In this document: piece by piece, positions 5,834 through 20,172 of the stretch
How positions within the stretch are numbered: position 1 is the stretch's first letter
How the letters are laid out: each line of letters starts with the position of its first letter
From: Actinomycetota bacterium
Lineage (GTDB): Bacteria; Actinomycetota; Actinomycetes; Actinomycetales; Microbacteriaceae
Direction of reading: 5' to 3'
DNA: 64,000 nt
Assembly: GCA_037033305.1 (NCBI GenBank)
Contig: JAZBLP010000009.1
Span: 187-64,186 of the forward strand
The notes under the pieces: model-generated
What the model was told of the DNA's origin: nothing
The model's database searches: none
Seen by the model: only the letters and a program-made list of their open reading frames with translations
Made by a program: the position numbers and the translations under genes

Positions 5834-5877
5834 ACAGCCCTCCCGGCTTTTCGTCTAGGTCCAGCCGGGAGGGCTGT
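5834..5877 (+). terminator. Strong hairpin terminator (15-bp perfect stem)
   Basis: ACAGCCCTCCCGGCT (5834-5848) pairs with AGCCGGGAGGGCTGT (5863-5877) across a 14-nt loop. Confidence 0.65.
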
Positions 5878-5904
5878 CCTATGCCCATCTCAAAACCATG
5901 ACTT

Positions 5905-6015
5905 TGAGACATCCGTTACACCCGATGGCTAGTTGTACGGATAGCGGCTATTCTCCGTCTCGAAAGCTGTATCTGTGACTTGTCTCAGAAGTGTGTAACG
6001 GATACAGTGTGAGAC
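5905..6015. promoter_or_regulatory. Inverted/direct repeat cluster directly upstream of the serine recombinase gene (candidate res/recombination or operator site)
   Basis: ATCCGTTACAC (5911-5921) is the reverse complement of GTGTAACGGAT (5993-6003). TGAGACA (5905-5911) is the reverse complement of TGTCTCA (5981-5987). TGAGAC recurs at 6010-6015. Confidence 0.5.
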
Positions 6016-6597
6016 ATGACCACTCAGAAGACGTTCGGCTACATCCGAGTCTCGACCGCCGCGCAGAACCTCGACCGTCAGACGGATGCTCTCGTGGCGG
6101 CTGGCATCGACCCCGCCGACATCTACGCCGACAAGATCAGCGGCGTGAAGACCACTCGCCCCGGTCTCGATGACCTCCTCAGCAGAGTTCGCGACGGGGA
6201 CCGTATACAGGTGACCTCGCTTGACCGTCTGGGACGCTCTGCCCTGCACGTGCTCAGCACGATTGCCGAGCTTGAGGAACGCGGCGTCACCGTGCTCAGC
6301 CTCAAGGATGGCGAGAACATGACCGGCGCGACGGGCAAGCTCATGCGCGGCCTCATGACCCTTATGGCTGAGTGGGAGCGCGAGATGAACGCCGAGCGCG
6401 TTGCAGAGGCTAGGGCCGCTCGTGCCGCTCGTGCTCAGGCGGGTGAGCAGGTAGCAGGACGGCCACGTACGGCCCTCTCCCCGTCGAAGGTGGCAGAGGT
6501 ACACAAGCTCAAGGCCAAGGGCCGCACGCCCTCTGAAATCGCCAAGCTGGCAGGCATGAGCCGCGCGAGCGTATACCGCGCTCTGAGCGCCACCTGA
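6016..6597 (+). CDS. Small serine recombinase (resolvase/invertase family) with C-terminal HTH
   Basis: Track ORF. Contains FGYIRVSTAAQNLDRQ (catalytic Ser motif), LDRLGRS, and C-terminal GRTPSEIAKLAGMSRASVYRAL. Confidence 0.9.
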   Translation: MTTQKTFGYIRVSTAAQNLDRQTDALVAAGIDPADIYADKISGVKTTRPGLDDLLSRVRDGDRIQVTSLDRLGRSALHVLSTIAELEERGVTVLSLKDGENMTGATGKLMRGLMTLMAEWEREMNAERVAEARAARAARAQAGEQVAGRPRTALSPSKVAEVHKLKAKGRTPSEIAKLAGMSRASVYRALSAT

Positions 6598-6600
6598 GGC

Positions 6601-6993
6601 CTATGGAAGGGTGATTCGCTCCGTGGGGCCGTCAGTCTCCGTAGCCGTTGCTGAACCCTTCGACTGTGACGGCTCTGGCCACTCATCGAGCAGTGCAGAG
6701 AGCCGATCCCGCTCGCGCTCCAAGAGCTTCCGGTGATCCTGCCCGTGCACCCTAGCCCAAGCGGGGAACTTTGGCTTATCCATGAGCCTGCCCAGCCGTT
6801 CGCTCGTCGTCAGGTACTCGATACGGAAGCTGGCCAGTTCCCGCGCCCATTGCGTCCGCTGGCGAGCTTCCCACTGCTCGATGCTGTCGCCCCTATGCGC
6901 CGCCGTCCTGCACTTGGATGAGCAGAACCTGGCATCACTCCGCCGCGCCTTGAACTCGCGTCCACATCTGTTACACGTCACGTTGTGTGTCAC
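6601..6993 (-). CDS. Hypothetical zinc-ribbon protein
   Basis: Track ORF, GTG start. N-terminal CNRCGREFKARRSDARFCSSKCR carries four Cys arranged as CxxC..CxxxC. Confidence 0.55.
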   Translation of the reverse strand: MTHNVTCNRCGREFKARRSDARFCSSKCRTAAHRGDSIEQWEARQRTQWARELASFRIEYLTTSERLGRLMDKPKFPAWARVHGQDHRKLLERERDRLSALLDEWPEPSQSKGSATATETDGPTERITLP

Positions 6994-7036
6994 AGTTAGG
7001 CCTCATCTCGGTTAATCTCATCGTATGGTGCAGTGC

Positions 7037-7231
7037 TCACGTCGCGTCACGCTCCCCGGCCTCAAGCCAAGCGTTCACATCGCTACGGCGGTAACGGATA
7101 CGCCCACCAGCGCGGATGAAGCGGGGACCCGTCCCGCGATAGCGCATCTGCGCAAGAGCAGGGACGGAGCGCCCGAGCAACGCGGCGAGCGTGGCAGGGG
7201 TCATGAGTTGTTCGTCTGTGTTCGTCGTCAT
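7037..7231 (-). CDS. xis: Excisionase / MerR-AlpA-type HTH DNA-binding protein
   Basis: Track ORF (64 aa). LMTPATLAALLGRSVPALAQMRYRGTGPRFIRAGGRIRYRRSDVNAWLE is the classic excisionase-family HTH. Divergent from the integrase gene. Confidence 0.8.
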   Translation of the reverse strand: MTTNTDEQLMTPATLAALLGRSVPALAQMRYRGTGPRFIRAGGRIRYRRSDVNAWLEAGERDAT

Positions 7232-7314
7232 GGTGCATCTATACGCACGACCTCGACCGTTTCCAAAAGGTCACCCAACTTAACGAATCGACCACTGAGC
7301 CGTAGGGATAGAGC

Positions 7315-8505
7315 ATGAGCAAATCAGCATGGATCGCGGACAGGTGGAGGGGCGAGAAGACGGGCACCGGCCTCAGGTGGCGCGTCGTATGGATCGATCC
7401 CGATACCAAGCGCGAGAAGAGCAAGAGCTTTCGGAAGAAGACTGACGCCGACGCCTTCCGCACCAAGACGGAAGACAGCTTGCGGGGTGACACGTACGTG
7501 TCGCCGCAGATCGCGGCGCTCACTGTCGCAGACGCCGCCGAGGCATGGATGAACTCGAAGAAGAGGATCAAGGCCGCCGCTCGTCGTAAGTACCGTGACG
7601 ACCTCGACAACTACGCTCTGCCACGCTGGGGCCATCTACCCCTGAGCGCCGTCAAGCGTCCCGACATCGAGAAGTGGATCAGTGACCTTGCAGACGGCAC
7701 CGCGCCCCGCAGAGCCGACGCTAAGGCCTTCTCAGGCGTACTCTCCCCCGCGAGCATCGATGGTGTCTTCACCGTCCTGAACGCTTCCCTCCGGTACGCA
7801 GTGCGAGAGGGCTGGATCAGGCAGAACCCGGCGACCGGCGTGGAGACTCCGAAGGCGAAGACGGAACCCGTCATCTTCCTGACTCATCCTGAACTCGAAG
7901 CACTCATCGACGGCACCCGGCAGGCGGGCAACCTGAGCGATGCTGTCATGGTCGCAGTGATGGGGAACATCGGCCTGAGGCCCGGTGAGGCCGTCGCGCT
8001 CGACGTGGCCGACGTGGACATCCCCGCTAAGCGTATTTACGTCTCGAAGACGGTAACGCTTGACGATGACCGCCGTCACGTGATCGGGGACTCTCCGAAG
8101 ACGGCGGCGGGCATCCGCGCAGTACCGATCCCGCCGCATCTGCTCGATGACCTCGACGCGCTCACCAAGGGCCGCGACGACGGCGAACCCCTCTTCACGT
8201 CACCACGGGGCGACCGGCTCAACCTGTACAACTGGCGCGCGCGGAACTGGACCAAGGCCAAGCAAGCGGCAGGGGCACCGGCAGGCCTGACCCCGAAGGG
8301 ACTGAGGCACACTGCCGCATCGCTCGCCATCGCGGCAGGGGCTGACGTGCTCGTGGTTCAACGGATGCTGGGTCACGCCAGCGCGACCGAAACACTCAAC
8401 ACGTACGCGAAGCTGTGGCCGGATCGGTTGGACGAAGTGACAGCGGCGATGTCGAAGGCCAGGACCGAAGCCCTGACTAAGCCTGACCGCTCCCGCTCAT
8501 CCTGA
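7315..8505 (+). CDS. int: Tyrosine-type site-specific integrase
   Basis: Track ORF. Has an N-terminal SAM-like/arm-binding region. The C-terminal catalytic box LRHTAASLAIAAGADVLVVQRMLGHASATETLNTYAKLW shows the R..H-x-x-R..Y pattern. Adjacent to the tRNA attachment site. Confidence 0.92.
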   Translation: MSKSAWIADRWRGEKTGTGLRWRVVWIDPDTKREKSKSFRKKTDADAFRTKTEDSLRGDTYVSPQIAALTVADAAEAWMNSKKRIKAAARRKYRDDLDNYALPRWGHLPLSAVKRPDIEKWISDLADGTAPRRADAKAFSGVLSPASIDGVFTVLNASLRYAVREGWIRQNPATGVETPKAKTEPVIFLTHPELEALIDGTRQAGNLSDAVMVAVMGNIGLRPGEAVALDVADVDIPAKRIYVSKTVTLDDDRRHVIGDSPKTAAGIRAVPIPPHLLDDLDALTKGRDDGEPLFTSPRGDRLNLYNWRARNWTKAKQAAGAPAGLTPKGLRHTAASLAIAAGADVLVVQRMLGHASATETLNTYAKLWPDRLDEVTAAMSKARTEALTKPDRSRSS

Positions 8506-8560
8506 CTACATCCTGAACGGCCTCTGAGGAGCTAGCCGGGATCGCTGGAGCCGGATACAC

Positions 8561-8588
8561 GAAAACCCCCGGATAACCAGGGGTTTTC
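8561..8588. terminator. Hairpin between the integrase gene and tRNA-Arg
   Basis: GAAAACCCC (8561-8569) pairs with GGGGTTTTC (8580-8588) across a 10-nt loop. A/T runs flank it on both sides, so it could act bidirectionally. Confidence 0.55.
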
Positions 8589-8610
8589 TATGCTTACTGT
8601 CTCAACACAG

Positions 8611-8649
8611 TGTGCGCCCGAAGGGACTCGAACCCCTAACCTTCTGATC
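8611..8649. repeat. att direct repeat, tRNA-proximal copy
   Basis: 38 of 39 positions identical to 2425-2463. Overlaps the 3' half of tRNA-Arg. Confidence 0.9.
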
Positions 8650-8685
8650 CGTAGTCAGATGCTCTATCCATTGAGCTACGGGCGC
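8613..8685 (-). tRNA. tRNA-Arg (anticodon ACG)
   Basis: The reverse complement GCGCCCGTAGCTCAATGGATAGAGCATCTGACTACGGATCAGAAGGTTAGGGGTTCGAGTCCCTTCGGGCGCA folds as a cloverleaf. Acceptor is GCGCCCG/CGGGCGC, anticodon loop is CTACGGA, T-loop is TTCGAGT. CCA is not encoded. Confidence 0.93.
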
Positions 8686-8751
8686 TCCTGGACCGCTCAG
8701 CGGGCCGTAGAACAGCCTACAACAGACGCGACGCGAAAGCGAAACGAGCGC

Positions 8752-9333
8752 TCACTCGTCACTGTCGGGCGTGTTCTGCTTCTTCTTCCGCTTCGCCTTC
8801 GCGCGCTGCAGAGACGACAGCGCCTGCAGGTCGACGAGTCGCAGCGCCTGCATCCGCGCCTCGCGCATCCGGTCGTAGTCGGGGTCCTGATCGGGTCGCA
8901 TGCCCTCGACACGCAGACGACGATCGAGGTTGTGCCGCACGTCGGCCCAGGCGCCTTCTCGCGCCTCTTCGACGATGACGCGCAGGGCGGCCTCGTCCTC
9001 CATCATGTCGCGCAGCTTGGTCGCGACCCCGTGCGACTGCTTGGCCCGCCGACGCAGGTTGCGCACGTCGCGGTCTCGGTAGTCGTGGGTGCCGGAGGGA
9101 TCGGAATGGCGACCGCGAGCGCGTTTGCGCAGCTCGGTCAGGTTGCGCTCGACCTCTTCGGATTCCTCGGCCATCGCCCGCAGCGCTTCGCGCGCATCGG
9201 CCACGTACTTGTCAGTGTCGAAGACGCCGTTCTCGGCGATCGTGCCGATGAGGATGTGATTCTTCACGGCGAGGCGCGCCGCAGCGGTCGCGATCGCAAC
9301 GCCTTCGGCGATGGCATCCGCTGTTCGTCCCAC
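8752..9333 (-). CDS. Conserved hypothetical protein (Arg/Glu-rich helical)
   Basis: Track ORF 8752..9423. I prefer the GTG start at 9333, which is preceded by GGAAGGAGG. The product begins VGRTADAIAEGVAIATAAARLAVKNHILIGTIAENGVF. Confidence 0.6.
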   Translation of the reverse strand: MGRTADAIAEGVAIATAAARLAVKNHILIGTIAENGVFDTDKYVADAREALRAMAEESEEVERNLTELRKRARGRHSDPSGTHDYRDRDVRNLRRRAKQSHGVATKLRDMMEDEAALRVIVEEAREGAWADVRHNLDRRLRVEGMRPDQDPDYDRMREARMQALRLVDLQALSSLQRAKAKRKKKQNTPDSDE

Positions 9334-9461
9334 CCCTACCTCCTTCCTTCGAGAGTACCGGTATCGCTCGGGGATGCAGTGGGCCAGAATGGATCGGAAT
9401 CGGGTCGCTCCGACCCGCTCCACGACCGGCCGCGCTCCCGATCGCCGCCAGGAGGGATGCG

Positions 9462-10301
9462 ATGAAGCGTCTCACGCTCACCGGAAGCACGACGGTCATC
9501 ACCGGCGCTGCGAGCGGGATGGGGGCCGACATCGCCCGGCTGCTGGCTGCCCAACGCGTGCATCTGGCGCTCATCGACCACAACGCCGACGGTCTCGCAG
9601 CCATCGCCGCCGAGCTCACCGACGCCACCGTCACCACCCACGTGGTCGACCTGCGAGACGACGACGCCGTCTTCGCCACAGCCGAGGAGATCACCGCCGC
9701 GCACCCGAGGGTGAATGCGCTGATCACGTGCGCGGGCTCGTCGATGCTCGGCGACATCGATCAGCTGACCATGGAGGAGATGCGCTGGCTGACAGATGTG
9801 AATCTCTGGGGCACGGTGTCGATCACGAAGGCGCTGCTCCCCGCCCTGCGAGCGGCGCCCACGGCCCACATCACGCACCTTGCGAGCGTCTACGCGCTGG
9901 CCGCGCCCGCGGGACGCATCCCCTACTCCCTGAGCAAGTTCGCGGTACGCGGGTTCTCCGAAGCACTGCGCCACGAACTCGACGGCACTTCGGTGACGGT
10001 GGGCGCGGTGTATCCGGCCGGCGTGCGCACGGGCATCATCCTGCACGGACGGTATGCCGCGGCGCTCGATCCGGCCGTCGCCGCGAGGGCCGCGGCGGCA
10101 CAGGCAGCGATGTACCACACCGAGCCCGCGGATGCCGCGGCGCTGATCGTGCGGGCGACCGAACGTCGCCGCCCACGGACGATGGTCGGACGGGAGGCGC
10201 GACTGATCGATGTGCTCACGCGCCTCGCACCGTCGAGCTACTGGCGCGTCATGCGGCGCCCCCTGCGAGAGGCCGTCGACACGACCACGCCGGTCGCCTG
10301 A
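9462..10301 (+). CDS. SDR family oxidoreductase
   Basis: Track ORF. Contains ITGAASGMGADIA (TGxxxGxG) and YSLSKFAV (YxxxK), with AGGAGGG upstream. Confidence 0.88.
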   Translation: MKRLTLTGSTTVITGAASGMGADIARLLAAQRVHLALIDHNADGLAAIAAELTDATVTTHVVDLRDDDAVFATAEEITAAHPRVNALITCAGSSMLGDIDQLTMEEMRWLTDVNLWGTVSITKALLPALRAAPTAHITHLASVYALAAPAGRIPYSLSKFAVRGFSEALRHELDGTSVTVGAVYPAGVRTGIILHGRYAAALDPAVAARAAAAQAAMYHTEPADAAALIVRATERRRPRTMVGREARLIDVLTRLAPSSYWRVMRRPLREAVDTTTPVA

Positions 10302-10302
10302 G

Positions 10303-11166
10303 TCAGCCGACCGCGCCGACCCAGATCCCCGACGCCCACGCCTGCTGATCGGCATCGCATCCGACGGATCCCGGATAACCCCGCACGACCGCCATGCAGT
10401 TCGCGAGGAACTCGGGGTCACCGCCGAACGCCGAGTAGTAGGCATCCGAGGATGTCAGGGCGCTCCACACCCGGAACTGGTAGATGTGCGCCAGCTCGTG
10501 CGCCATCGCCCAGTTCAGTCGGTCGGCGCTCCAGTCGACGATGTCGGCCCGGTATTTGATGAAGCCACCGCTGTTCGCGCATGCGGGCGCGGTTCCCCCT
10601 GCACACGAGGCCGACTCGTAGAGCCCGACTCCCCCGCCGCCCACCTGGTCGAGAGCCGCGCGCACTCGTGCGAACCCGTCCGGACCGCTCGACGACCACG
10701 CGGGGCCCGAGGGAGCCGCATACTGCGCCGCCTCCCAGCTGCCGATGTCCTGCCCCACCTTGTCGATGAGGGCATGCACGGTGGCGGTGGCAGCGACCAC
10801 GGTGGCCGGGTTCTTCCGCTCGTCGAGCACGGCCTGCTGGGCCGACTGCGCGGATGCCCGGTGCGCCGAGGTGTCGACCTTGCCGGTCGCTCCTTCGATC
10901 GCCGCAGTCAGTGCGTGGATCTCGTCGACGAAGGCCGGCCGCACCTCGAGCACGGCGGCGCGCGCCGCCGCATCCTTCTCGGCGATGGCGATCGATCCTT
11001 CGAGGTGATCGGTGCGCATCTCCGCGGCCCGAGCAGACTGCGTCAGCGACTGCAGCTCGGCGATCGCGGCCGCCCTGTCTTCGTCCAGGGCCGCGGCGCG
11101 ACCGACGACGCCCGCAGCCAGCAACACGGCGGCGACGATCGTGACGGAGAGGAACCGCCGGATCAC
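10303..11166 (-). CDS. Secreted protein with N-terminal coiled-coil region and C-terminal HExxH (putative zinc metallopeptidase)
   Basis: Track ORF. Signal/anchor MIRRFLSVTIVAAVLLAAGVV, an Ala/Glu-rich helical segment, and WAMAHELAHIYQF (HExxH). Confidence 0.65.
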   Translation of the reverse strand: MIRRFLSVTIVAAVLLAAGVVGRAAALDEDRAAAIAELQSLTQSARAAEMRTDHLEGSIAIAEKDAAARAAVLEVRPAFVDEIHALTAAIEGATGKVDTSAHRASAQSAQQAVLDERKNPATVVAATATVHALIDKVGQDIGSWEAAQYAAPSGPAWSSSGPDGFARVRAALDQVGGGGVGLYESASCAGGTAPACANSGGFIKYRADIVDWSADRLNWAMAHELAHIYQFRVWSALTSSDAYYSAFGGDPEFLANCMAVVRGYPGSVGCDADQQAWASGIWVGAVG

Positions 11167-11176
11167 AGAGTTCGCC

Positions 11177-11422
11177 TCATGGCAGGAAACCCGAGGTGTC
11201 CGAGAGCAGCGTCTCCTGCTCGGCGATCGTCGTGCGCAATGCGGTCAGCTGCTCGGCGAGATGGAGATTCGCCTCGCGCGCATGGTCGAGCCGTTCCTCC
11301 GCCTGGACGACAGCCGCTCTCGCCTCGGCGAGGGCATCCACACGCTGCTGGTCCGCGACCGCGAGGAGCACCGTCCCGCCGAGGAGCAGCAGGCCTCCGG
11401 TCACGACAGCGACAGCTCTCAT
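11177..11422 (-). CDS. Small membrane-anchored coiled-coil protein
   Basis: Track ORF 11177..11470 starts at a TTG. I prefer ATG 11422, preceded by GGGAG: MRAVAVVTGGLLLLGGTVLLAVADQQRVDALAEARAAVVQAEERL.. Confidence 0.55.
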   Translation of the reverse strand: MRAVAVVTGGLLLLGGTVLLAVADQQRVDALAEARAAVVQAEERLDHAREANLHLAEQLTALRTTIAEQETLLSDTSGFLP

Positions 11423-11587
11423 ATCGCTCCCCAGGACACGACGAAATTCGGAACCGTTCCGTATGGCCAATATATCCCCGCGGGAGACCGCTCTCCAGGC
11501 CGCTTGCGGCAGCGGCAGCGCGAAAGAAGATTACGAAGAGCAGCAGGATCAGGAACATGGGCGGTCTGCACGGCGCGAACGCACCTT

Positions 11588-11901
11588 CGTGGATTTCGTG
11601 ATCTACACCCGCATCAGCCTTGACCGCACGGGCGAGGGTTGCGGGCGGCTCGCCAAGAGCAGGAGTGCCGCGTCCTGGCTGAGCGCCTGGCATGACAGCT
11701 ATCCACGTATTTAGCGACAACGACACCACCGCCATGAGCGGAAAGGTGCGCGCCCCAGCTTTGAAGCCAGGTGTGTGGGGCGGCCTATCGATGGACGCCA
11801 AGCGCGCCGTGCTGGATGCCCTCGTGACGGTGACCATCCTGGCCAGCGGCAGCGGCAAGGCGTTCGATCTGGAGACCGAACGCGTCACCTGGAAAGCCTA
11901 G
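11588..11901 (+). pseudogene. Remnant of a large serine recombinase (frameshifted N-terminus fused to the extreme C-terminus)
   Basis: Three frames together read (V)DFVIYTRISLDRTGEG / GLRAARQEQECRVLAERL / MTAIHVFSDNDTTAMSGKVRAPALKPG.., matching the resolvase-domain N-terminus of large serine recombinases but with at least 2 frameshifts. It then jumps directly to a C-terminal-type tail ..KRAVLDALVTVTILASGSGKAFDLETERVTWKA*. Confidence 0.7.
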
Positions 11902-11960
11902 ATTCGCATGAAAGGGCTGTTGACGTCATGTCTGACGCTGACGCACCGCACGTGGCCGGG

Positions 11961-13031
11961 CTACTCCCGTGGCAGCCGGTGTGCAGTGTCGAGTCGGAAT
12001 GCGTTCGCTCGTGCGAGCGCTCTACCGATCGGGGTGATGTAATACCCGCTGTCGGCGTGCCGATCCCACCATTCAGCGACGGCACCAAAGCTCGGCAACT
12101 CGTGAATCTTGTTCATCAGTTCGGTCCGGGCCAAGTCGTCCTGTTGGCCCAGACCAAACTCTGACGCCGCCTGGCTCATCACCGTCTGCACATATGTCTC
12201 AGATTTGCCAGCGTGGCGGAGCATCTTCTCAAGTGCAGCACCGTTCGGTACTCCGATGCGGACGTGCCCGTTCTTGAGCTCGTGAGGAAGGACGAGCACC
12301 GGCCAGGGTTCCTCAGCGAGGTCAGCGCCGACGAACTGAGGCGCTGCGTCGAAAGCGGCACCCGGAGCGATATATCCATTGAGTTGCTCCCCGTAGTACT
12401 GCTCCATTTTTTTCATTCCACTCAGAGGGTTGCGGCGGAGGGCGTTGAGGGCATCGAGATGGTCAAGCCAGTCTGTCCCCTCGGGCAGAGGCCCGTCTAG
12501 CAGGGAAGAATAAATTGATTCGAACAGGTCAAGGCCCAAAGCAATCACGGGCGATGTCGCCGTCCACTGCGCTACCGCGTTGGACACGGTTAACGCCCGT
12601 AGTGCCTCCGAATCGATACGATCCACGATGTCGATCGCACCGTCGATGCCCACGATACGTGGACGCTCGCGTGGATTCTTTGCTCGATCGATGAGCAACG
12701 CTGCCAGCATGTCGTAGTCAGCGGGACGCTCACTGGACGCCGCACCCTCTTGGGCCTTCTTGTAGGAGCGGATGAACGCAGGATCTGCGAATGAATCGAG
12801 CGCGTCAACGTTGGACAAGTTCTTGATGACCCGTTGGTCGAGCTCTTCGACCCGCGCCTGGAGTATCTGGTGCGACTCGACCGCGAACTCTTCAACGACA
12901 CGTCGAGCGTTGGCGAGCGATATCTCCTGGGCGCGCTCCTCGGTGATGCCAACGTTGACGATATAGTCGCCTGCGATCTGCACCTGCTTAGAGCCCTGGC
13001 CACCCTTCTGGCTCTGCTCGCTGCCCGTCAT
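11961..13031 (-). CDS. Hypothetical 356-aa protein (from memory resembles the uncharacterised LPO_1073/Vpar_1526-type family)
   Basis: Track ORF in lower-GC DNA. The N-terminus is SEQSQKGGQGSKQVQIAGDYIVNVGITEERAQEISL.., followed by a helical body. Its ATG overlaps the stop of the upstream small ORF (TAATG). Confidence 0.7.
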   Translation of the reverse strand: MTGSEQSQKGGQGSKQVQIAGDYIVNVGITEERAQEISLANARRVVEEFAVESHQILQARVEELDQRVIKNLSNVDALDSFADPAFIRSYKKAQEGAASSERPADYDMLAALLIDRAKNPRERPRIVGIDGAIDIVDRIDSEALRALTVSNAVAQWTATSPVIALGLDLFESIYSSLLDGPLPEGTDWLDHLDALNALRRNPLSGMKKMEQYYGEQLNGYIAPGAAFDAAPQFVGADLAEEPWPVLVLPHELKNGHVRIGVPNGAALEKMLRHAGKSETYVQTVMSQAASEFGLGQQDDLARTELMNKIHELPSFGAVAEWWDRHADSGYYITPIGRALARANAFRLDTAHRLPRE

Positions 13032-13210
13032 TACTTGTTGCCTTTCGCGTCGCGGCCAATCTGCATCTGCGTTGCGTTATCGCCAGCGCGCTGTCTCTGC
13101 TTCACCGATGAACGTTTCGACATGATGCGCCATGTGACCGTGCTACCTGCAGTACCCCCAAGGATCAAGCCGATAAGCATGGTGCCCAGCCCGTCCAAGA
13201 ACCAGTCCAC
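13031..13210 (-). CDS. Small membrane peptide (59 aa, below the track cut-off)
   Basis: My translation from GTG 13210 (GGAGGATCC immediately upstream): VDWFLDGLGTMLIGLILGGTAGSTVTWRIMSKRSSVKQRQRAGDNATQMQIGRDAKGNK*. It has one TM helix and a basic tail. The stop overlaps the ATG of the 356-aa gene. Confidence 0.5.
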   Translation of the reverse strand: MDWFLDGLGTMLIGLILGGTAGSTVTWRIMSKRSSVKQRQRAGDNATQMQIGRDAKGNK

Positions 13211-13582
13211 GGATCCTCCGCTCTCGGGTGCCGTTCACCCGTCAGTCACGATACCAACCACCGCCGATTTGTCGCCCCTCAGCTGGCGGATAGGTATGAC
13301 GGGAAATACCGGCGTCCGCAGTTGATCATCATCGAGGGCCAACGTTAGGAAGCTTCGAGTACGGTCACGCATTTGCCTGAAAGGCCCCCTTCAGGAAAAC
13401 CTTGAGACGATCGGCAATGACCCTCGGGAGCGACCATCCGCCTACGCAGCGCTGTCACTCTGCGTTCAAGCACGGCGCGAGTTGGGGCCGGAAATGACTA
13501 CGGCGCGGCATGCGTCTTCGCTTGGGCGACGCATCAGCCCGGGCTCTGGCATGATTACCAGCACATCCACCGGGAGGTTCAC

Positions 13583-15172
13583 GTGGCAATGCTCGGCCTA
13601 GATATCGTAGCGGGCGCGAAGATCGTCAAGACCGAGCAGTTTGGCGATTGGTACCGCGATCCATGGGGTTGGCCCGAGACAACCCACGAGTTCGCCGAAA
13701 CCCTTACCTTCGAAGACCTAGGCGTGTCGAAGCGGGGAAATCGATATGTCTACGAAGCTACGCCAGACTTCCATCTGTTCGACGTTCCTAAGTCATTCAT
13801 AGGCGTGCGACCCGCGGTCATCCAGGACGTGCGGAGCCGGCTGGCCTACACGGCAGCTGCAGACGGCTTGGCGGCCCGGCTGCACGCCGACCTGCCCGAG
13901 TGGGTTTACGGCTGGCGCTACCGAGATGGAATCTACGGGAGGACCAACGAATGGAAGCTGTATCAGGAAAACCAAGCTGACGTCCATCGTCAGGACTTCG
14001 CGGCTCAGACCGATATCACTTCGTTCTTTGCGTCGATAGATGTCGACAGATTGATCGACAGGATTACCGACAACGTCGGCGCGGCCAACGTTTCGACTGA
14101 CATCGTGCGGAAAGTGCTGGCTACGCATAACCTGCTTCACGGGCGAAGCGGAATACCGCAGCGCAGTTCCGCCTCCGCGTTTCTCGCTCACACCGCCTTG
14201 CGGCAGGTTGATGACCTGCTCGGGTCCCTCATGCAATCCGGGGAACTGACGGCGGCTCGGAGGTGGATGGACGACATCAGTTTTGAAGGCCCCGAGTCGG
14301 CGATGTACGGAGCGCTCTTGCAGCTTCAACAGTCTTGCCGCCAGGAGGGTCTAGAGATCAATGCCCTCAAGACAATGCTCATCTCTGGTGAACAGAGCGC
14401 TCAGCGCTTGCATGAGGAAGCGCAAGGCTTAATCAGGCTGCCCGTCACAACGACGCGCGTTACCAACGACTACGAAGACTTCGAGATGACATTCGTAGAC
14501 CGAGGGGCGTTGCAGGAGGCGGAGGAGGATGTGCTGTCGTCACCGAGCCGAGCGCCGCGATCTAAAGTTGGCATCGTCCTGAAAAGCCTCGTCCGCTACG
14601 ACGAGTACTCTCGCATCACCGATTGGATGTCAGCAGCCAAATACCTTCCGCACGCGGCGGACAAACTGAGTCGCTACTTGGCCGCTGGTAATCGCTCCCT
14701 GTGGGGGTTCGGCTTGAACCTCGCCGAATGGTTCACGGAGTTGCAGCTATCCGGATGGCCCCACGTGGAATGGGTTCAGGCACAGCACGCGCTCGCAGTT
14801 CCGTCCGAGGACGTCGATGAGGCGATGCGCGCGATTCTGGAGAGCTGGCTCAGCGAGAGCTCGAACCTCCAAAAGGTGGCGGTGGCAGTCCAACGGATCG
14901 CGGCCGCACATCCGGTTCGGTACCGAGCTTTGGTGGCCGCTCGCATGGACTCAGTACACGATCCTCTGCTGACGCGGCTCCTCGCGCTAGGCCTTCTCAT
15001 GGCCGCCCAGCCAAAGGATGGCGTGCGTCAGGCTCTTCGACGTCACCCAAGTAACGCACTGACGCTCAAGTACTTGGAGGCGAGAGATTGGCGTCTGCCC
15101 AACGTTCCAGACGACTTTGATCCGATCCATGACAACGAAGACGGCGCCGATGAATCAGAAGCGGCGCCGTAA
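13583..15172 (+). CDS. Reverse transcriptase, stand-alone, UG/Abi/DRT-like (RT core + C-terminal helical domain)
   Basis: Track ORF, GTG start after GGGAGG. RT motifs read in the translation: FDVPKSFIGVRPAVIQDVRSRL (1/2), QTDITSFFASIDVDRL (A), GIPQRSSASAFLAHTAL (B), RRWMDDISF (C), LEINALKT (D/E). About 230 aa of Leu/Ala-rich helical sequence follows. Confidence 0.88.
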   Translation: MAMLGLDIVAGAKIVKTEQFGDWYRDPWGWPETTHEFAETLTFEDLGVSKRGNRYVYEATPDFHLFDVPKSFIGVRPAVIQDVRSRLAYTAAADGLAARLHADLPEWVYGWRYRDGIYGRTNEWKLYQENQADVHRQDFAAQTDITSFFASIDVDRLIDRITDNVGAANVSTDIVRKVLATHNLLHGRSGIPQRSSASAFLAHTALRQVDDLLGSLMQSGELTAARRWMDDISFEGPESAMYGALLQLQQSCRQEGLEINALKTMLISGEQSAQRLHEEAQGLIRLPVTTTRVTNDYEDFEMTFVDRGALQEAEEDVLSSPSRAPRSKVGIVLKSLVRYDEYSRITDWMSAAKYLPHAADKLSRYLAAGNRSLWGFGLNLAEWFTELQLSGWPHVEWVQAQHALAVPSEDVDEAMRAILESWLSESSNLQKVAVAVQRIAAAHPVRYRALVAARMDSVHDPLLTRLLALGLLMAAQPKDGVRQALRRHPSNALTLKYLEARDWRLPNVPDDFDPIHDNEDGADESEAAP

Positions 15173-15604
15173 GCAAGCGCTCCTGCGCCCCCTCGAGCTC
15201 CTCTTGGCGCGCACGCACGCACACGCTCGCCGTGCCCTTCGTTCGATTCTGGGCAGCCTTCCGCGGACGCCCCTGACGGCTTTCTCTGAGATAGCCCAAC
15301 CGAAACTTCGTCCCCGCCATGCTCTGGCCATGAGCTTGCCCACGGTCCCTCGGCGCGTGGTGTCGACAACAGCTCGCATGGGCACGACTACACACTTCCG
15401 CGTCCAGCGCGGCGGGGCACGAAGGAAAACCCAGTTCAAAAGGCATGTTACCGAACTGCGCCCACCAGCGCCACGCTGCCGCATTTGGCCTACCTGGCCG
15501 GCACGTCGGGACTGCCGGTAGCTGCGGGGCCGCTCAGAGAACCCTCAGAGCCGCTCACACCGATCCCGCGCGTCGGGCCTCACCAGTCCCCGGCACAGAC
15601 CCAA

Positions 15605-15814
15605 AGGTGCGTTTACGCGATTGTTGAGAACCTCCTAGATGAGAAAAACCTCTTTGACCGCGATTTCGGCCTTGCGCACTTGTCGATGGTGAGCCTAACG
15701 GAAGCCTCGGTTCTCCACCACGAGTTCAATAAGACCGAGCAGAATCGCCTCGTGGACCGTGATCCCGATCGGTGGAGGTATGCGAACGACGACGGTGTTA
15801 TCTACCCGGAGTAA
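15605..15814 (+). other. Protein-like ORF tail (possible gene remnant or 42-aa small ORF from ATG 15686)
   Basis: Only the last ~70 codons of track ORF 15485..15814 look protein-like (VYAIVENLLDEKNLFDRDFGLAHLSMVSLTEASVLHHEFNKTEQNRLVDRDPDRWRYANDDGVIYPE). The upstream part is Pro/Gly/Ala noise with no convincing start. Confidence 0.3.
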
Positions 15815-15842
15815 TTGAAGACCGGAGTCCTAGCCGCTCGAC

Positions 15843-15881
15843 GTACCCTTGCGTGTCGTTTGATACGCAAGGGTACCTTTT
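15843..15881 (+). terminator. Strong intrinsic terminator
   Basis: GTACCCTTGCGT (15843-15854) pairs with ACGCAAGGGTAC (15865-15876) across a 10-nt loop, followed by CTTTT. Confidence 0.8.
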
Positions 15882-15945
15882 CGTAATTGTGTTGGGCATA
15901 AGTATCAGGATCTCTCTTTGCCACCAGCCTGTTCCGACCGGCTGC

Positions 15946-16605
15946 TCAGATCGAGAAGGCCTGGTCGGTGAGGCGTCGCTCGGCAGCCTGCTGGCCGCTG
16001 GCCAGATGGCGAGGGACCATCACGCGGAGGGCGTCGGTGTCACGTGCGGCGACGGCCTCGAGGATCAGCCGATGCTCTTCGGCCATCGCGAGCAGATCGT
16101 CGTGCTGGCCGAAGAGCCAGCGCAGCCGGGTGACGAACACCGCGATGAGCTCGCCCAGCATCTCGTTGCCCGCGAGCTCGGCGGAGATCTCGTGGAACTC
16201 GCCCGCAGCGATCCGTGCTGCATCGGTCTCGCCGGCGGATGCTGCGGCGAATTCGCGCTCGTAGGCGGCCCGAAGCCGCGCGATCCCCTCATCGGTGTGA
16301 CGTTCGGCGGCGAAGACGAAGATCAGGGTCTCGATCGCCTCGCGCACCTCACCGAAATCCTGGATGTCGCGATGCGTGAACTCGCGCACGACGGCCCAGG
16401 TCCGCGGGCGGGCGACAACCACTCCCTCGCCGACGAGAGTGCGGATCGCCTCGCGCACCGGAAGCCGCGAGACGTTGAGCTCGGCCGCGATATCGCGTTC
16501 GATGAGCCGGGAACCCGGGGCGCGCCGACCGAGCACGATGTCGTCGCGAAGAACGCGCGTCACCCGCACCGACTCGAGTTCGCCGGTAGTCCCCACCCCC
16601 GCCAT
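15946..16605 (-). CDS. GntR family transcriptional regulator (FadR/FCD type)
   Basis: Track ORF. Contains LIERDIAAELNVSRLPVREAIRTLVGEGVVV followed by a helical FCD-like C-terminus. Confidence 0.88.
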   Translation of the reverse strand: MAGVGTTGELESVRVTRVLRDDIVLGRRAPGSRLIERDIAAELNVSRLPVREAIRTLVGEGVVVARPRTWAVVREFTHRDIQDFGEVREAIETLIFVFAAERHTDEGIARLRAAYEREFAAASAGETDAARIAAGEFHEISAELAGNEMLGELIAVFVTRLRWLFGQHDDLLAMAEEHRLILEAVAARDTDALRVMVPRHLASGQQAAERRLTDQAFSI

Positions 16606-16741
16606 AACCGAATTGTCTCACTCGGAGAACCGCCCGACAAGTTTGGTATCCCAGGGCGGCGCGGATGTTACGGGCGCGTGGTCGCGGTCGGACGCGAGAG
16701 AGGGAGCGGATGCCTCGGCATCCGCTCCCTCGTCTGAGTCG

Positions 16742-17383
16742 TCAGGGCCGACGGTTGGCGATCGCGAGGTTCGCCTTCAGCTCGTCGGCGTTCTGCCGCA
16801 CGACGTATGCCGGGCGGTCGCGCTCGACCCTCCAGGACTCGCTGAGGGGTCCGACGTTGACCGTGTCGAAGCCGGCTTCGTCATAGAAGCGGGTGACGAA
16901 GGCGACGGCCTCTGCATCGTCGCCCGCCGTGGCGAGCGCACGCCGATCGGCCGTGCCCGCCGGCGAGCCATCGGTCGTGATGTCGGCCGCGAAGATGTGG
17001 TTGAACGCCTTCGCGATCCGAGACGTCGGCAGCTGGGCCTGCAGAAGCTCAGAGGTGGTGGTCTCGCCGCGGTCGAGGGCGTCGATGCGCCCGTCGCGTT
17101 CGAAGTAGTAGTTGTTCGTGTCGAGCACGATCTTGCCGGCGAGCTGCTCGACCGGCAGCTCGTCGATCTTGCCCAGGGGCACCGTGACGACGACGGCGTC
17201 GCCGGCCGCAGCGGCATCTGCGGCTGTCGCAGCCGATGCTCGATCGCCGAGCTCCGCGACGAGGTCTGCGAGTGTCTCCGGACCGCGTGAGTTCGCGATC
17301 ACCACGTCATAGCCGTTGGCCACCGCGACGCGAGCGACCTGGCTGCCGATGTGTCCTGCACCGATGATTCCGAGAGTAGTCAT
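16742..17383 (-). CDS. NAD(P)-binding oxidoreductase (NADPH-dependent F420 reductase-like)
   Basis: Track ORF. MTTLGIIGAGHIGSQVARVAVANGYDVVIANSRGPE is a Rossmann N-terminus. Confidence 0.75.
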   Translation of the reverse strand: MTTLGIIGAGHIGSQVARVAVANGYDVVIANSRGPETLADLVAELGDRASAATAADAAAAGDAVVVTVPLGKIDELPVEQLAGKIVLDTNNYYFERDGRIDALDRGETTTSELLQAQLPTSRIAKAFNHIFAADITTDGSPAGTADRRALATAGDDAEAVAFVTRFYDEAGFDTVNVGPLSESWRVERDRPAYVVRQNADELKANLAIANRRP

Positions 17384-17439
17384 GCTGGGCCCAACGCGCG
17401 CCCCGCGCCGCTATTCCCGGGTGACTCCGTGTGTCGCGA

Positions 17440-18387
17440 TCACACCGTGAGCAGGAAGCGCTCCTCGACCCGGCGATAGCCAAGGCTCTCGTAGAGCCGG
17501 ATCGCCGAGGCGTTGAAGCCGAAGACATGCAGCCCCATCGAGTCGGCGCCGAGTCGAGCCGCCTCGCGCTCGGCCGCGAGCATGAGATCCCGGCCGTAGC
17601 CCTTGCGACGCTGGTCCTCGGCGACCTCGATGTCGAGGATGAACCCGTGCGGCCGCCCGCCACGGCGACGGATGCCGATCCACAGCACCCCGACCTCGAC
17701 ACCGTCGACACGGGCGGTGAACAGCTCCTGCCCCTCCGAATCGATGCCGTCCGGCAGCTCGAGCTCCATCTGCCGGTGCGACTCGACCGCAGCATCGGCG
17801 GGGGAATATCGTCCGGATGCCACCAGATCGTCCGCGAAGGCCGCCTCGGATGCGGCGGCGAAGCTCGTGAAGCGCTCCGGGGTCATCGTCGCCACGACGA
17901 ACCCGTCGTCTGTCGGCTGCACCGCCCGGGACGGGAGGGGTTCGAGAAGCATCTGGATCGACGCGACCTCGAATCCCCGCCCCTCGACGAAATCGCGGCC
18001 GGCGGTGTCGGAGGCATGCAGGGCGACACTCAGACGACCGACCCGCTGCCGGCGCGCGAGCGCCGTCAGCTCGTCGAGCAGATCATCGAGCTGACGGGCG
18101 CTGGGCTCGGTCGCGAACGCGAGATCGACGATGAACAGCACGCCGTTGTTCGCGGCGAGCCAGCCGGTGCCGATCCGGGTGTCGCCGTCGTCGATCGTCA
18201 GGATGAGCGAGGTCTCGGTGTCATGCCCGGCCGGGAGCAGCTCGTCGAGCACGGCGTCGACGTGCGCGACGGCATCGACGCCGACGTACATCCCCGATTC
18301 CTGTCGCAGCGTCACCAGGCGGGCCCTGGTGGCCTCACGCCAGTCGTCGAAGCCTTCGGCGGTGAGAGGTGTCAGTGCAACAGGCAT
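17440..18387 (-). CDS. GNAT family N-acetyltransferase (two-domain)
   Basis: Track ORF 17440..18402 (GTG start). ATG 18387 is an equally plausible start. C-terminal domain: ILDIEVAEDQRRKGYGRDLMLAAEREAARLGADSMGLHVFGFNASAIRLYESLGY. Confidence 0.85.
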   Translation of the reverse strand: MPVALTPLTAEGFDDWREATRARLVTLRQESGMYVGVDAVAHVDAVLDELLPAGHDTETSLILTIDDGDTRIGTGWLAANNGVLFIVDLAFATEPSARQLDDLLDELTALARRQRVGRLSVALHASDTAGRDFVEGRGFEVASIQMLLEPLPSRAVQPTDDGFVVATMTPERFTSFAAASEAAFADDLVASGRYSPADAAVESHRQMELELPDGIDSEGQELFTARVDGVEVGVLWIGIRRRGGRPHGFILDIEVAEDQRRKGYGRDLMLAAEREAARLGADSMGLHVFGFNASAIRLYESLGYRRVEERFLLTV

Positions 18388-18418
18388 GGATCCATCCTGC
18401 ACCGCATCGCCTCGACGC

Positions 18419-18853
18419 TCACGACTTGTGCAGCGCGTCCTCCGCGGCCACCCACGCGAGCATCGCGCACTTCACCCGTGCCACGTAGCGCGAGACGCCC
18501 CCGAGAGCCGCGGCATCGCCGAGCAGCTCTTCGTCGGGCTCGATCTTGCCCCGCGAGCGCATCGCCTCGCGGAACGCCGCGATGCGGATCTCCAGCTCAT
18601 CGACCGTGAGGCCCTCGGCCAGCTCGGCGAGCAGAGACGCGGATGCCTGCGAGATCGCGCAGCCGTGCCCCTCCCACGCGATCGCCTCGATGCTGCCGTC
18701 GGCGTCGCGGTGCACCTGCAGCGTCACCTCGTCACCGCAGGTCGGGTTGACCTGATGCGACTGCGCGGCGATCTCATCGCGCAACCCGAACCCGTGCGGG
18801 GTGCGGGAGTGATCGAGGATGAGCTCTTGGTACAGGTTCTGCAGGTCGCTCAT
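18419..18853 (-). CDS. sufU: SufU-type Fe-S cluster assembly sulfur-transfer protein
   Basis: Track ORF. Three conserved Cys in NPTCGDEV, GHGCAIS and RVKCAML. ATGA overlap with sufS. Confidence 0.9.
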   Translation of the reverse strand: MSDLQNLYQELILDHSRTPHGFGLRDEIAAQSHQVNPTCGDEVTLQVHRDADGSIEAIAWEGHGCAISQASASLLAELAEGLTVDELEIRIAAFREAMRSRGKIEPDEELLGDAAALGGVSRYVARVKCAMLAWVAAEDALHKS

Positions 18854-20172
18854 GCGCCCCTCCGGAAGAAGTCGATCGCGCCCTGGACGCCGTCGATCAC
18901 AGCGTCGATCTCGTCATCGGTCGTGTACAGGTAGGTGCTGGCCCTCGTCGAGGAGGTGACGCCGAGGCGGCGATGCAGCGGCTGCGCGCAGTGGTGTCCG
19001 ACACGCACCGCGATGCCTCGATCATCGAGGAACTGCCCGACATCGTGCGAATGGATGCCCTCGACGTCGAAGCTCGCGAGCCCCACGCGCGGCAGATCGA
19101 TGCCGGCGCCGAGCACGCGCACGCCCTCGATGGCCGTGAGTCCTTCGACGAGTCGCGCGCCGAAGGCGGCCTCGTGCGCCGCGATGCTCGGCATCCCGAC
19201 CGCGGTCAGGTAGTCGATCGCCGCGGCGAGCGCGACCGCCTGGGAGACCCTCTGGGTGCCGGCCTCGAACCGTTGCGGCGGCGGCAGGTACGCCGCCTCG
19301 GTCGTGGTGACCGTGGTGATCATCGACCCGCCCGTCAGGAACGGGGGCATGGCCTCGAGCAGCTCGCGTCGCCCGTACAGTGCGCCGATTCCCGTGGGTC
19401 CGAGCATCTTGTGCCCGGACACCACGGCGAAATCCACGTCGAGTGCGCGCACGTCGAGCGGCAGATGGGGTGCTGACTGGCACGCGTCGAGCACGAGGAG
19501 CGCGCCGACGCCTCGCGCGAGCGCCACGAGCTGCGCGACCGGATTGATGACCCCGAGCACATTCGACACATGCGTGACGGCGACGAGCTTGGTGCGCTCG
19601 GTGATGAGCTCTGCGGCGGCGTCGAGCCGGAGGCCGCCGTCATCGTCGAGCGGAATGACACGCAGCGTCGCTCCTGTACGAGCCGCCAGCTCCTGCCACG
19701 GGATGAGATTGGCGTGGTGCTCCATCTCTGTGGTGACGATCTCGTCGCCCTCACGCAGACGCAGGCGCTCGGCGCCCGCGCCACCGCGACCGAGCGAGGC
19801 GTTCGAGATCGAGTACGCGATGAGGTTGAGCGCTTCGGTCGCGTTCGACGTCCATACGATCTCGCCCTCGTCAGCGCCCACGAACCGCGCGACGGTGGCG
19901 CGAGCGTCCTCGAACACCTCGGTGGCCTCGGCCGCGAGAGTGTGCGCACCCCGGTGAACCGCGGCGTTGAGGGTGGTGGCGAACTCGCGTTCGGCGTCGA
20001 GGACGGCGAGCGGACGCTGCGACGTCGCACCCGAGTCCAGATACACGAGCGGGTGGCCGTTGACCTCGGAACGCAGGAGCGGGAAGTCCTCGCGGAGTCG
20101 CCGCACCTCGACATCGGTCAGCGGGCCGCCCCCGGGAGGGGCGATCACGTCGGATTCGCGGGAGATGCTCAT
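18850..20172 (-). CDS. sufS: Cysteine desulfurase, SufS family
   Basis: Track ORF. Contains SGHKMLGPTGIG (PLP lysine) and RVGHHCAQPL (catalytic Cys). Confidence 0.92.
   Translation of the reverse strand: MSISRESDVIAPPGGGPLTDVEVRRLREDFPLLRSEVNGHPLVYLDSGATSQRPLAVLDAEREFATTLNAAVHRGAHTLAAEATEVFEDARATVARFVGADEGEIVWTSNATEALNLIAYSISNASLGRGGAGAERLRLREGDEIVTTEMEHHANLIPWQELAARTGATLRVIPLDDDGGLRLDAAAELITERTKLVAVTHVSNVLGVINPVAQLVALARGVGALLVLDACQSAPHLPLDVRALDVDFAVVSGHKMLGPTGIGALYGRRELLEAMPPFLTGGSMITTVTTTEAAYLPPPQRFEAGTQRVSQAVALAAAIDYLTAVGMPSIAAHEAAFGARLVEGLTAIEGVRVLGAGIDLPRVGLASFDVEGIHSHDVGQFLDDRGIAVRVGHHCAQPLHRRLGVTSSTRASTYLYTTDDEIDAVIDGVQGAIDFFRRGA

Follow-up and report, generated by a model that had tools for sequence, protein, structure and literature searches.

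The 64,000-nucleotide stretch of DNA analyzed here, called the window below, comes from a bacterium of the family Microbacteriaceae (Actinomycetota; GenBank assembly GCA_037033305.1, contig JAZBLP010000009.1, positions 187 to 64,186 of the forward strand). It carries a gene for a reverse transcriptase (RT)-like protein, and our analyses show that this gene is a stand-alone member of UG33, one of the groups of Class 1 UG/Abi RT-like polymerases. The features of the gene and of its surroundings are listed in Table 1, where L047 denotes the locus of its closest relative (86% identity). An initial annotation had described an open reading frame (ORF) of 529 aa with an intact RT core and quoted five peptides from it: the ORF and all five peptides were recovered in the translation, with the N-terminal peptide FGDWYRDPWGWPE at the expected place.

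Table 1. Features of the UG33 gene and of the adjacent DNA (positions in the window; res, residues)
Feature	Position	Strand	Description
UG33 RT-like gene	13583..15172	+	529 aa including GTG start; from the ORF list, with PADLOC match
Shine-Dalgarno GGGAGG	13572..13577	+	5 nt 5' of the GTG start
Imperfect palindrome CTGGCATGATTACCAG	13546..13561	+	22 nt 5' of the start codon, inside the 44 nt of upstream DNA common with L047
N-terminal signature GDWYRDPWGWPE	13643..13678	+	res 21-32; predicted non-helical loop, pLDDT 93-97; invariant W23, R25, D26, P27, W28
RT-like fingers and palm	13724..14422	+	res ~48-280; K70, R76, D144, F149, D230, D231, N260, K263
Motif A QTDITSFFAS	14006..14035	+	res 142-151; catalytic D144, F148/F149 at the steric-gate position
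Motif B P-Q-R	14156..14164	+	res 192-194; R194 in place of the PQG Gly
Motif C R-W-M-D-D	14261..14275	+	res 227-231; W228 in place of Tyr/Phe; D230, D231 catalytic
Motif D/E region LEINALKT	14351..14374	+	res 257-264; N260, K263
Beta-hairpin linker with Y297	14423..14497	+	res 281-305; predicted strands 288-294 and 299-305; pLDDT 66-80, lowest-confidence part of the model
Alpha-helical repeat (alphaRep) domain	14498..15082	+	res 306-500; 11 predicted helices, at the thumb position
C-terminal tail	15083..15172	+	res 501-529; invariant D511 in D-[F/Y]-D, acidic disordered end, stop codon
Two-gene module	11961-13240	-	divergent, left of the RT gene; 59-aa single-transmembrane gene 13031-13210 and LPO_1073/Vpar_1526 gene 11961-13031
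Large serine recombinase remnant (putative)	~11600-11901	+	N-terminal IYTRISLDRTGEG / RQEQECRVLAERL / HVFSDNDTTAMSGK over three frames, fused directly to a C-terminal part ending in GKAFDLETERVTWKA and a stop

Assignment to UG33 and predicted structure

The PADLOC model RT_UG33 (PDLC03772) matched the protein with E = 1.1e-164 and 547 bits, residues 3-513 aligning with profile positions 3-489 of 490. The next models, those of UG23, UG9, UG32, UG21, UG22, UG19, and Drt8, all scored 101 bits or less, and all these runner-up groups belong to Class 1 (PMC9226505). RT_UG33 was also the top match for each of the 36 homologs aligned (36/36) and for the nine distant or extended relatives (9/9). As a member of a named family for which a search model exists, the protein is not a new kind of RT. 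This family was defined by Mestre et al. in 2022, partly out of former UG23 sequences, and it is among the 16 UG/Abi groups for which the prediction of a role in defense was given as "inconclusive" in their census (PMC9226505). A full-text literature search yielded no relevant paper on UG33 besides that one, and a literature search for the WMDD box yielded nothing relevant. The defense RTs named since 2022, through DRT11 (DRT1-11), are groups other than UG33; the gene was thus placed in a catalogued group on which no experimental work was found in the literature, and not in a characterized clade. The profile comparison suggested in the initial annotation gave, beside the end-to-end RT_UG33 match, only a sub-threshold match to Pfam RVT_1 (27 bits versus a cut-off of 29.6, residues 74-268), and it is because this match lies just under the cut-off that the protein looks odd.

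Several other kinds of RT were considered and rejected. None of the NCBIfam models used to test membership (Drt2, Drt3a, Drt5, AbiA, retron St85, and TIR-RT) reached its curated cut-off, the scores being 52 versus 200 for Drt3a, 33.5 versus 250 for AbiA, 24 versus 390 for Drt2, 21 versus 550 for Drt5, and 27 versus 235 for retron St85. Retron RTs are short (about 300 aa), whereas the present protein has 529 aa and an alphaRep domain; the retron models scored far under their cut-offs, and neither an msr/msd-like Rfam match nor a suitable inverted repeat was found near the gene. A group II intron RT or maturase was rejected on the basis of the TIGR04416 score (42.7 versus a cut-off of 300) and of a superposition confined to the RT core (TM-score 0.35), and the Rfam scans detected no group II intron RNA. 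A diversity-generating retroelement (DGR) would have a template/variable repeat pair of some 100 bp or more in the vicinity of the RT, but no direct repeat in 9000-19000 exceeds 35 nt, and the one of that length is 71% identical, the level expected by chance. Nor was there found beside the gene the conserved, structured template non-coding RNA (ncRNA) that characterizes the Class 2 UG RTs (DRT2, DRT9, and DRT10).

The AlphaFold2 model, which was built with a 109-sequence alignment, has a pLDDT of 93.1 and a pTM of 0.91. It consists of an N-terminal segment carrying the signature loop, the fingers and palm, a beta-hairpin (288-305), eleven helices (306-500), and a non-helical tail, the pLDDT of which drops from 97 at residues 501-510 to 41 at the end. 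In the fingers and palm, beta-hairpins are predicted at residues 63-81 and 224-236, and W-M-D-D occupies the turn of the latter. The helical C-terminal domain of about 230 aa mentioned in the initial annotation corresponds to approximately 195 aa of helices and the 29-aa tail. As in the Class 1 enzymes, the alphaRep domain is predicted to take the position of the thumb, giving the molecule a C shape with two lobes.

In Foldseek searches against the PDB, the model superposed over its full length on Class 1 UG/Abi enzymes only: AbiK (7r06, TM-score 0.59), DRT4 (9vdv, 0.57), DRT6 (9wy8, 0.56), AbiA (8oz7) and the UG15 structure 9l9s (both 0.50), and Abi-P2 (7r08, 0.46). The RTs of group II introns, DRT9, DRT2, retrons, and DGRs gave core-only alignments (TM-scores 0.30-0.35), and the sequence-profile searches of the PDB likewise matched RT cores only. 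No full-length counterpart was found in the viral structure library, where the matches were confined to the core with TM-scores of 0.38 or less. The earlier suspicion that this is a UG/Abi-type RT is therefore borne out both by the PADLOC group and by the full-length fold matches to AbiK, DRT4, DRT6, AbiA, and Abi-P2. The RT had also been noted to lack any fused nuclease, nitrilase, primase, or protease domain, and the profile scans and the structural model agree.

Residues conserved across UG33

At E <= 1e-5, the sequence database search yielded 150 clusters of homologs, of which nearly all come from Actinomycetota, and the exhaustive profile search yielded 232 clusters (50% identity) at E <= 1e-30, the best 150 matches all being UG33. 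The group is mostly actinobacterial, occurring in Microbacteriaceae, Micrococcaceae, Streptomyces, Micromonospora, Mycobacterium, and Actinomyces; Nesterenkonia, Galbitalea, Agromyces, Curtobacterium, and Arthrobacter are also among its hosts. In both the 36-member and the 109-member alignments, the residues G21, W23, R25, D26, P27, W28, K70, R76, P77, G110-W-R112, D144, F149, G190, Q193, R194, R227-W-M-D-D231, and K263 are invariant, as are D511 of the tail and several positions in the helical domain; N260 is conserved in at least 90% of the sequences.

Both boxes were located in 224 family proteins: motif C reads RWMDD in 205 of them and RW[LV]DD in 8 more, and motif B reads [P/A/T]-Q-R in 220. 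The pattern GDWYRDPWGWPE was recovered in 197 family proteins. Pairwise HMMER alignments with solved RTs place W228 opposite the F/Y of RFCDD, RYADD, and RYVDD, and R194 opposite the Gly of LPLG, LPQG, and IPRG, so the initial annotation had assigned both residues correctly. It had pointed to them as unusual features, and they are real; they are not, however, peculiar to the gene in the window. Since they are invariant in the family alignments and nearly so in the set of 224 proteins, the Trp and the Arg are fixed hallmarks of UG33: W-x-D-D, PQR, and the N-terminal GDWYRDPWGWPE are essentially invariant throughout the group.

The catalytic set is intact and invariant. In the comparison with L047, the ratio of nonsynonymous to synonymous substitution rates (dN/dS) is 0.078, with dS ~1: the gene is under strong purifying selection. 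This ratio and the number of homologous clusters place the observation well beyond what chance would give. The DNA coding for GDWYRDPWGWPE is 79-97% identical to that of the RT genes at loci L038, L022, L012, L034, and L041, although the proteins are only about 30% identical; this is probably due to the invariant residues combined with the codon bias of high-GC genomes.

Boundaries, flanks, and neighborhoods of the gene

The database copy of the protein (P0001) has 527 aa and starts at the ATG at 13589. The GTG at 13583 is probably the true start, since it has the GGGAGG Shine-Dalgarno sequence 5 nt upstream and gives an N-terminus, M-A-x-L-G-L-D, that is common to the window protein and its relatives. 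DNA similarity to L047 is limited to positions 13539 to 15133, starting 44 nt 5' of the start codon and stopping 39 nt 5' of the stop. Of these 44 upstream nucleotides, only the Shine-Dalgarno sequence is also present in more distant relatives, and it is the sole upstream element kept in all four close relatives. The palindrome CTGGCATGATTACCAG is perfect in L047, where it reads CTGGCATGATTGCCAG, and absent in L048 and L050; it may represent an operator or belong to a promoter. In 11500-16500, the search gave no sigma-70-like promoter. In the clade to which the window gene belongs, the functional unit is the ORF with a short leader.

The neighborhoods were compared in 46 genomic loci and in the contigs of the three metagenomic relatives nearest to the window gene. 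No conserved neighbor gene was found in the 50 loci. When the ORFs within 6 kb of the RT in the 46 loci and the window were clustered, the RT alone recurred, besides scattered integrases and two partner families confined to a distant clade. The genes adjacent to the four closest relatives show no mutual similarity even at E = 10, and no conserved partner was detected within 6 kb in the approximately 25 loci of the window's clade.

The possibility of an adjacent ncRNA was also rejected. All-against-all BLAST comparisons of the flanks of 36 loci (530 nt upstream and 630 nt downstream) showed nothing common to the whole family, only synteny between close relatives. Rfam gave no match at E <= 1 in 12900-16000, and the only hits in the window at the gathering threshold were two tRNAs; the flanks do not fold better than shuffled sequences (z = +0.29 and +0.64). 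On the downstream side, the RT stop is followed by about 700 nt (15173-15876) ending with a strong terminator-like hairpin (15843-15876, 15-bp stem). This stretch contains a doubtful 109-aa ORF (15485-15814) without any family match, and 35 nt of this small ORF (15731-15765) are 71% identical to the 5' coding region of the RT gene (13628-13662), which is close to the chance level. In a set of 50,697 phage records, no full-length match to the protein was found.

The RT gene lies in a low-GC islet of 4.5 kb (~11450-15950), with a GC content of 0.59 versus 0.69 and a third-codon-position GC content of 0.70 versus 0.85-0.92. The islet also contains the divergent two-gene module, in which the stop of the 59-aa gene overlaps the start of the LPO_1073/Vpar_1526 gene. 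This module is 79% DNA-identical to a pair of genes in Subtercola frigoramans, which is followed there by an intact large serine recombinase, and it also occurs beside an ISL3 transposase in a metagenome contig devoid of the RT. The confident model of the Vpar_1526 protein (pLDDT 89) did not match any PDB structure (best E = 0.41, TM-score <= 0.21). The LPO_1073/Vpar_1526 gene was considered as the missing effector and rejected, since it is part of an independent two-gene module that is found without the RT in Subtercola and in the metagenome contig. In L052, an intact 436-aa recombinase occupies the position of the recombinase remnant, convergent with Vpar_1526. The hand-joined translation of the remnant gave a weak match to Pfam Resolvase (E = 0.061); its putative identity is based mainly on its position relative to L052 and on N- and C-terminal motifs recognized by eye. 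Since the two-gene module recurs without the RT and the recombinase remnant marks a decayed module, the RT gene is a separate cassette lying against decayed mobile DNA and does not form an operon with that module.

Elsewhere in the window, a second block of lower GC content (2737-8685) ends at a tRNA-Arg(ACG) gene (8612-8685, minus strand) and carries a tyrosine integrase (7315-8505), a small resolvase (6016-6597), a helix-turn-helix protein (3476-4231), and several genes without any Pfam match; the block resembles an integrative element that entered at this tRNA gene. At L047, the RT gene is located in a block of about 6.5 kb (6224-12768) containing seven genes without any Pfam match, including the RT itself; this block splits a tad/type II secretion-like pilus locus and has a DUF7882 gene at each side.

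The organization of UG33 loci varies. Like all the members examined, the window protein has RWMDD, PQR, GDWYRDPWGWPE, and the alphaRep domain, but in its own sub-clade the RT is always solitary, whereas other members have neighbors or N-terminal fusions. The distant UG33 clade is 27-33% identical to the window protein; the highest RT_UG33 scorers belong to it, and their identity to the window's sub-clade is only 29-33%. Neighboring proteins with two N-terminal transmembrane helices and a Nudix box (REFWEELVDEG) were found in this clade (L027 5151-5939, L034 5161-5949, and L030 7547-8182). Three neighbor proteins match PADLOC RTasNUDIX and Pfam Sa_NUDIX, and these are probably the same three, to judge from the motif. 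The second partner family consists of unannotated proteins of about 300-390 aa with a C-terminal transmembrane helix (L021 7561-8469, L022 7704-8876, and L029 7497-8447). Seven UG33 RTs (P0143, P0205, P0188, P0195, P0221, P0236, and P0254) carry N-terminal extensions of 160-230 aa, which resemble a CHAT protease in P0143 and GmrSD_N/DUF262 in P0205 and are otherwise unannotated and helical; all seven retain RWMDD and PQR. Other UG33 loci adjoin type I and IIG restriction-modification (R-M), MADS, AbiEii, Mrr, and STAND genes. A solitary UG33 RT (L051 4154-6518) is also present on a 32-kb mobilizable plasmid of Mycobacterium intracellulare (NZ_LT703510.1), where it is divergent from a small "recombinase family protein" gene and near ParA, and four more M. 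intracellulare plasmid records contain the same match. These neighbors, fusions, and modes of carriage form the modular, island-borne pattern of defense systems.

Proposed mechanism, alternatives, and significance

All the Class 1 enzymes examined to date polymerize DNA without any nucleic-acid template, and several of them are protein-primed. By analogy with these precedents, we propose that the window gene encodes a solitary Class 1 enzyme performing protein-primed, template-free DNA synthesis, and that the DNA produced serves as the effector in phage defense; taken as a whole, this proposal seems to us reasonably probable. The mode of synthesis is suggested by the Class 1 precedents and by the equivalences, based on spacing and analogy, of W228, R194, and the GDWYRDPWGWPE loop. 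Class 1 enzymes need to assemble into dimers, trimers, or hexamers of identical subunits to be active. The window protein would form a homo-oligomer, the RT-like and alphaRep lobes of which would enclose a channel admitting only single-stranded DNA (ssDNA). Synthesis would start on a hydroxyl side chain of the enzyme itself, the candidates being Y24, Y127, and Y297, and would continue without any nucleic-acid template, with D144, D230, and D231 as catalytic residues and K70, R76, N260, and K263 holding the deoxynucleoside triphosphate (dNTP). W228 would stack on the 3'-terminal bases, offering them a larger surface than the YxDD Tyr of AbiK and DRT4, and R194 and the N-terminal GDWYRDPWGWPE loop would fill the space usually occupied by the template and may bias the choice of nucleotide. 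Host nucleases would keep the protein-linked ssDNA short until a phage factor permitted its accumulation, and the accumulated ssDNA would block phage replication or arrest the cell. As in DRT4 and AbiK, the DNA product itself would be the effector in the window's clade, since no effector is fused or adjacent to the RT in this clade.

In the characterized systems, the priming Tyr is located in the N-terminal loop in AbiK (Y44) and Abi-P2 (Y61; PMC9508834), in the palm in the single-gene system DRT4 (Y125; PMC12783706), in the first alphaRep helix in DRT7 (Y682), and in the C-terminal tail in DRT3b (Y666; PMC13174585). AbiK and DRT4 both stack their YxDD Tyr (Y245, PMC9508834, and Y238, PMC12783706, respectively) on the bases at the 3' end of the product. 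In DRT4, a phage DNA-binding protein shields the ssDNA against a host exonuclease (PMC12783706). The triggers of DRT4, DRT6, DRT7, and DRT10 were phage proteins that bind DNA, resemble SSB, or mimic DNA.

DRT4 (UG15; PDB 9vdv, 9vdo, and 9l9s) resembles the window protein in size and two-lobe architecture (TM-scores 0.50-0.57 over ~510-530 columns), and it is likewise encoded by a single gene without any ncRNA (PMC12783706). The residues R75, D149, Y238-I-D-D, N271, and K274 of DRT4 match in layout R76, D144, W228-M-D-D, N260, and K263 of UG33, respectively; N271 and K274 (N-x-x-K) position the dNTP in DRT4 (PMC12783706). Y127 of UG33 lies where DRT4 has its priming Tyr125, in the part of the palm that precedes motif A. 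The two proteins are nevertheless only about 10% identical, without any sequence-level match, and DRT4 has a canonical YIDD box and an absolutely conserved priming Tyr, whereas UG33 has a Trp and no invariant Tyr; DRT4 is also proteobacterial, while UG33 is mostly actinobacterial. AbiK (7r06) and Abi-P2 (7r08) are stand-alone, thumbless enzymes consisting, like the present one, of an RT and a helical domain arranged in a C shape (PMC9508834). They prime from a Tyr in the N-terminal loop, as Y24 could do in UG33, and the first residue of the xxDD box of AbiK (Y245) is the one that stacks on the product. In contrast, sequence similarity to them is detectable in the RT motifs only, their helical domains are unrelated in sequence, and their hosts and carriers are different (a Lactococcus plasmid and a P2-like prophage).

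The comparison with DRT3b (UG8), a protein-templated poly(dC-dA) synthase that also has a Class 1 RT, an alphaRep domain, and a C-terminal tail, concerns the choice of nucleotide. In its palm, R241, which is located 37 residues before D278, forms hydrogen bonds with the base at -1, and the alternating C/A product is set by this Arg along with E22 and R71 (PMC13174585). In UG10S, the 3' nucleotide is contacted by R597, a palm residue that precedes D631 by 34 positions. R194 of UG33 is located 36 residues before D230, at the position of the PQG glycine, and by their spacing alone R194 may be compared with R241 and R597, and D22/D26/E32 and R76 with E22 and R71. The acidic and aromatic residues D22, W23, R25, D26, W28, and E32 form an invariant set in the N-terminal loop of UG33, and the same part of the chain supplies E22 in DRT3b (PMC13174585) and K24/S26 in DRT4 (PMC12783706). 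DRT3b differs in that it works with a second RT and an ncRNA, retains YVDD, and primes at the penultimate residue Y666, whereas the tail of UG33 has D-F-D and no Tyr. A bolder idea, which we regard as doubtful, is that the Trp in place of Tyr, the Arg in place of Gly, and the GDWYRDPWGWPE loop together constitute a protein "template" writing a defined homopolymer or short repeat. If this were true, the product would be unlike the poly(dC-dA) of DRT3b and the poly(dT) of DRT7, and UG33 would be the third independent case of protein-specified DNA, in this instance in a single-gene system of Actinobacteria.

Several points weigh against the proposal. The roles assigned to W228, R194, and the N-terminal loop are deduced from sequence position and analogy. 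Outside the standard RT motifs, the 109 sequences contain no strictly invariant Tyr, Ser, or Thr: Tyr is present in 105 of the 109 at position 24, in 101 at position 127, and in 86 at position 297. Y24 is replaced by L or V in some extended relatives, and Y297, which is a Tyr in 85 of the 96 sequences of the window's clade, is absent from the other clade. A single invariant priming Tyr was therefore rejected, each of the three candidates being 79-96% conserved, and since none of them is invariant, priming may differ between the UG33 clades. The 2022 survey was unable to show any enrichment of UG33 in defense islands (PMC9226505). Lastly, the fact that many relatives have dedicated effectors could mean that the DNA is a signal and not a weapon, in which case the solitary copy would have no known output.

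This last point leads to an unlikely alternative, in which the RT is the sensor or signal half of a two-part system, the effector being encoded elsewhere in the genome and an adjacent one having been lost or never having been present; catalysis would be the same as in our proposal, and only the route of the output would differ. It is in line with the UG33 members having an adjacent protein of the 2TM-NUDIX type (with two transmembrane helices), a neighbor with a C-terminal transmembrane helix, or a CHAT or GmrSD_N fusion, and with the sister group UG23, which swaps NUDIX for SLATT effectors (PMC9226505). UG23 is a Class 1 group with 2TM-NUDIX or SLATT partners (PMC9226505) and the second-best PADLOC model (E = 1.5e-29), and the 2TM-NUDIX association also occurs in some UG33 members; however, its match is limited to residues 64-398 (101 bits versus 547), and the window's clade has neither a NUDIX nor a SLATT partner. 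The gene is under strong purifying selection in spite of the lack of a conserved partner within 6 kb in about 25 loci of the same clade, and DRT4 and AbiK, the single-gene systems nearest to it in structure, act alone. We hold it to be highly improbable that the enzyme is an RNA-templated RT like the Class 2 enzymes DRT2, DRT9, and DRT10, with its template ncRNA inside the ORF, in the 44-nt leader, or elsewhere in the genome. The sequence-only searches of the PDB did match templated cores best (Cas6-RT-Cas1, group II intron, and DGR RTs), the 44 upstream nucleotides are kept in L047, and an embedded or trans-acting RNA would be beyond the reach of computation. Those 44 nt are confined to the closest relative, however, only the Shine-Dalgarno sequence being kept elsewhere; no conserved flanking non-coding DNA was detected across the 36 loci, Rfam gave no match, and the flanks fold like shuffled sequences. 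In addition, an Arg occurs where PQG makes room for the template strand, the alphaRep domain is predicted at the thumb position, and every full-length structural match is to a template-independent enzyme.

It is also very unlikely that the gene serves the mobile DNA carrying it, by plasmid or island addiction or exclusion, or some other kind of DNA metabolism instead of phage defense. Such a role would fit the inconclusive defense-island enrichment of UG33 (PMC9226505), the solitary member on the 32-kb Mycobacterium plasmid, and the decayed serine-recombinase module against which the window copy abuts, but according to the literature the UG/Abi groups tested to date all protect against phages. 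The neighbors and fusions of UG33 (R-M, MADS, AbiE, Mrr, STAND, NUDIX-2TM, CHAT, and GmrSD_N) are typical defense parts, no copies were found in the phage genomes searched, and carriage on mobile DNA is normal for defense genes. As for a decaying or catalytically dead relic, the sub-threshold RVT_1 score (27 versus 29.6 bits), the non-canonical box, and the broken recombinase gene in the islet might suggest one, yet the probability is practically negligible: the catalytic and dNTP-binding residues are invariant family-wide, dN/dS is 0.078 with dS ~1, the ORF is full-length with a good Shine-Dalgarno sequence, and the W and the R are fixed across the family and not degenerate.

What is new here is that W-x-D-D, P-Q-R, and GDWYRDPWGWPE are invariant family-wide, that the clade has a solitary architecture, and that UG33 is placed by structure among the template-independent enzymes. 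The gene was correctly spotted as a member of what proves to be a catalogued system, not of a new kind of system. UG33 has in it a compact and well-conserved representative, encoded by a single gene and with a confident structural model, and the comparison of the family singles out W228, R194, the N-terminal loop, Y24, Y127, and Y297. RT-based defense has hardly been studied in the actinobacterial hosts of this group. Since the products of the characterized Class 1 enzymes differ (random ssDNA, poly(dT), and poly(dC-dA)) and the Trp/Arg site is fixed, it is reasonable to look to UG33 for yet another product specificity.

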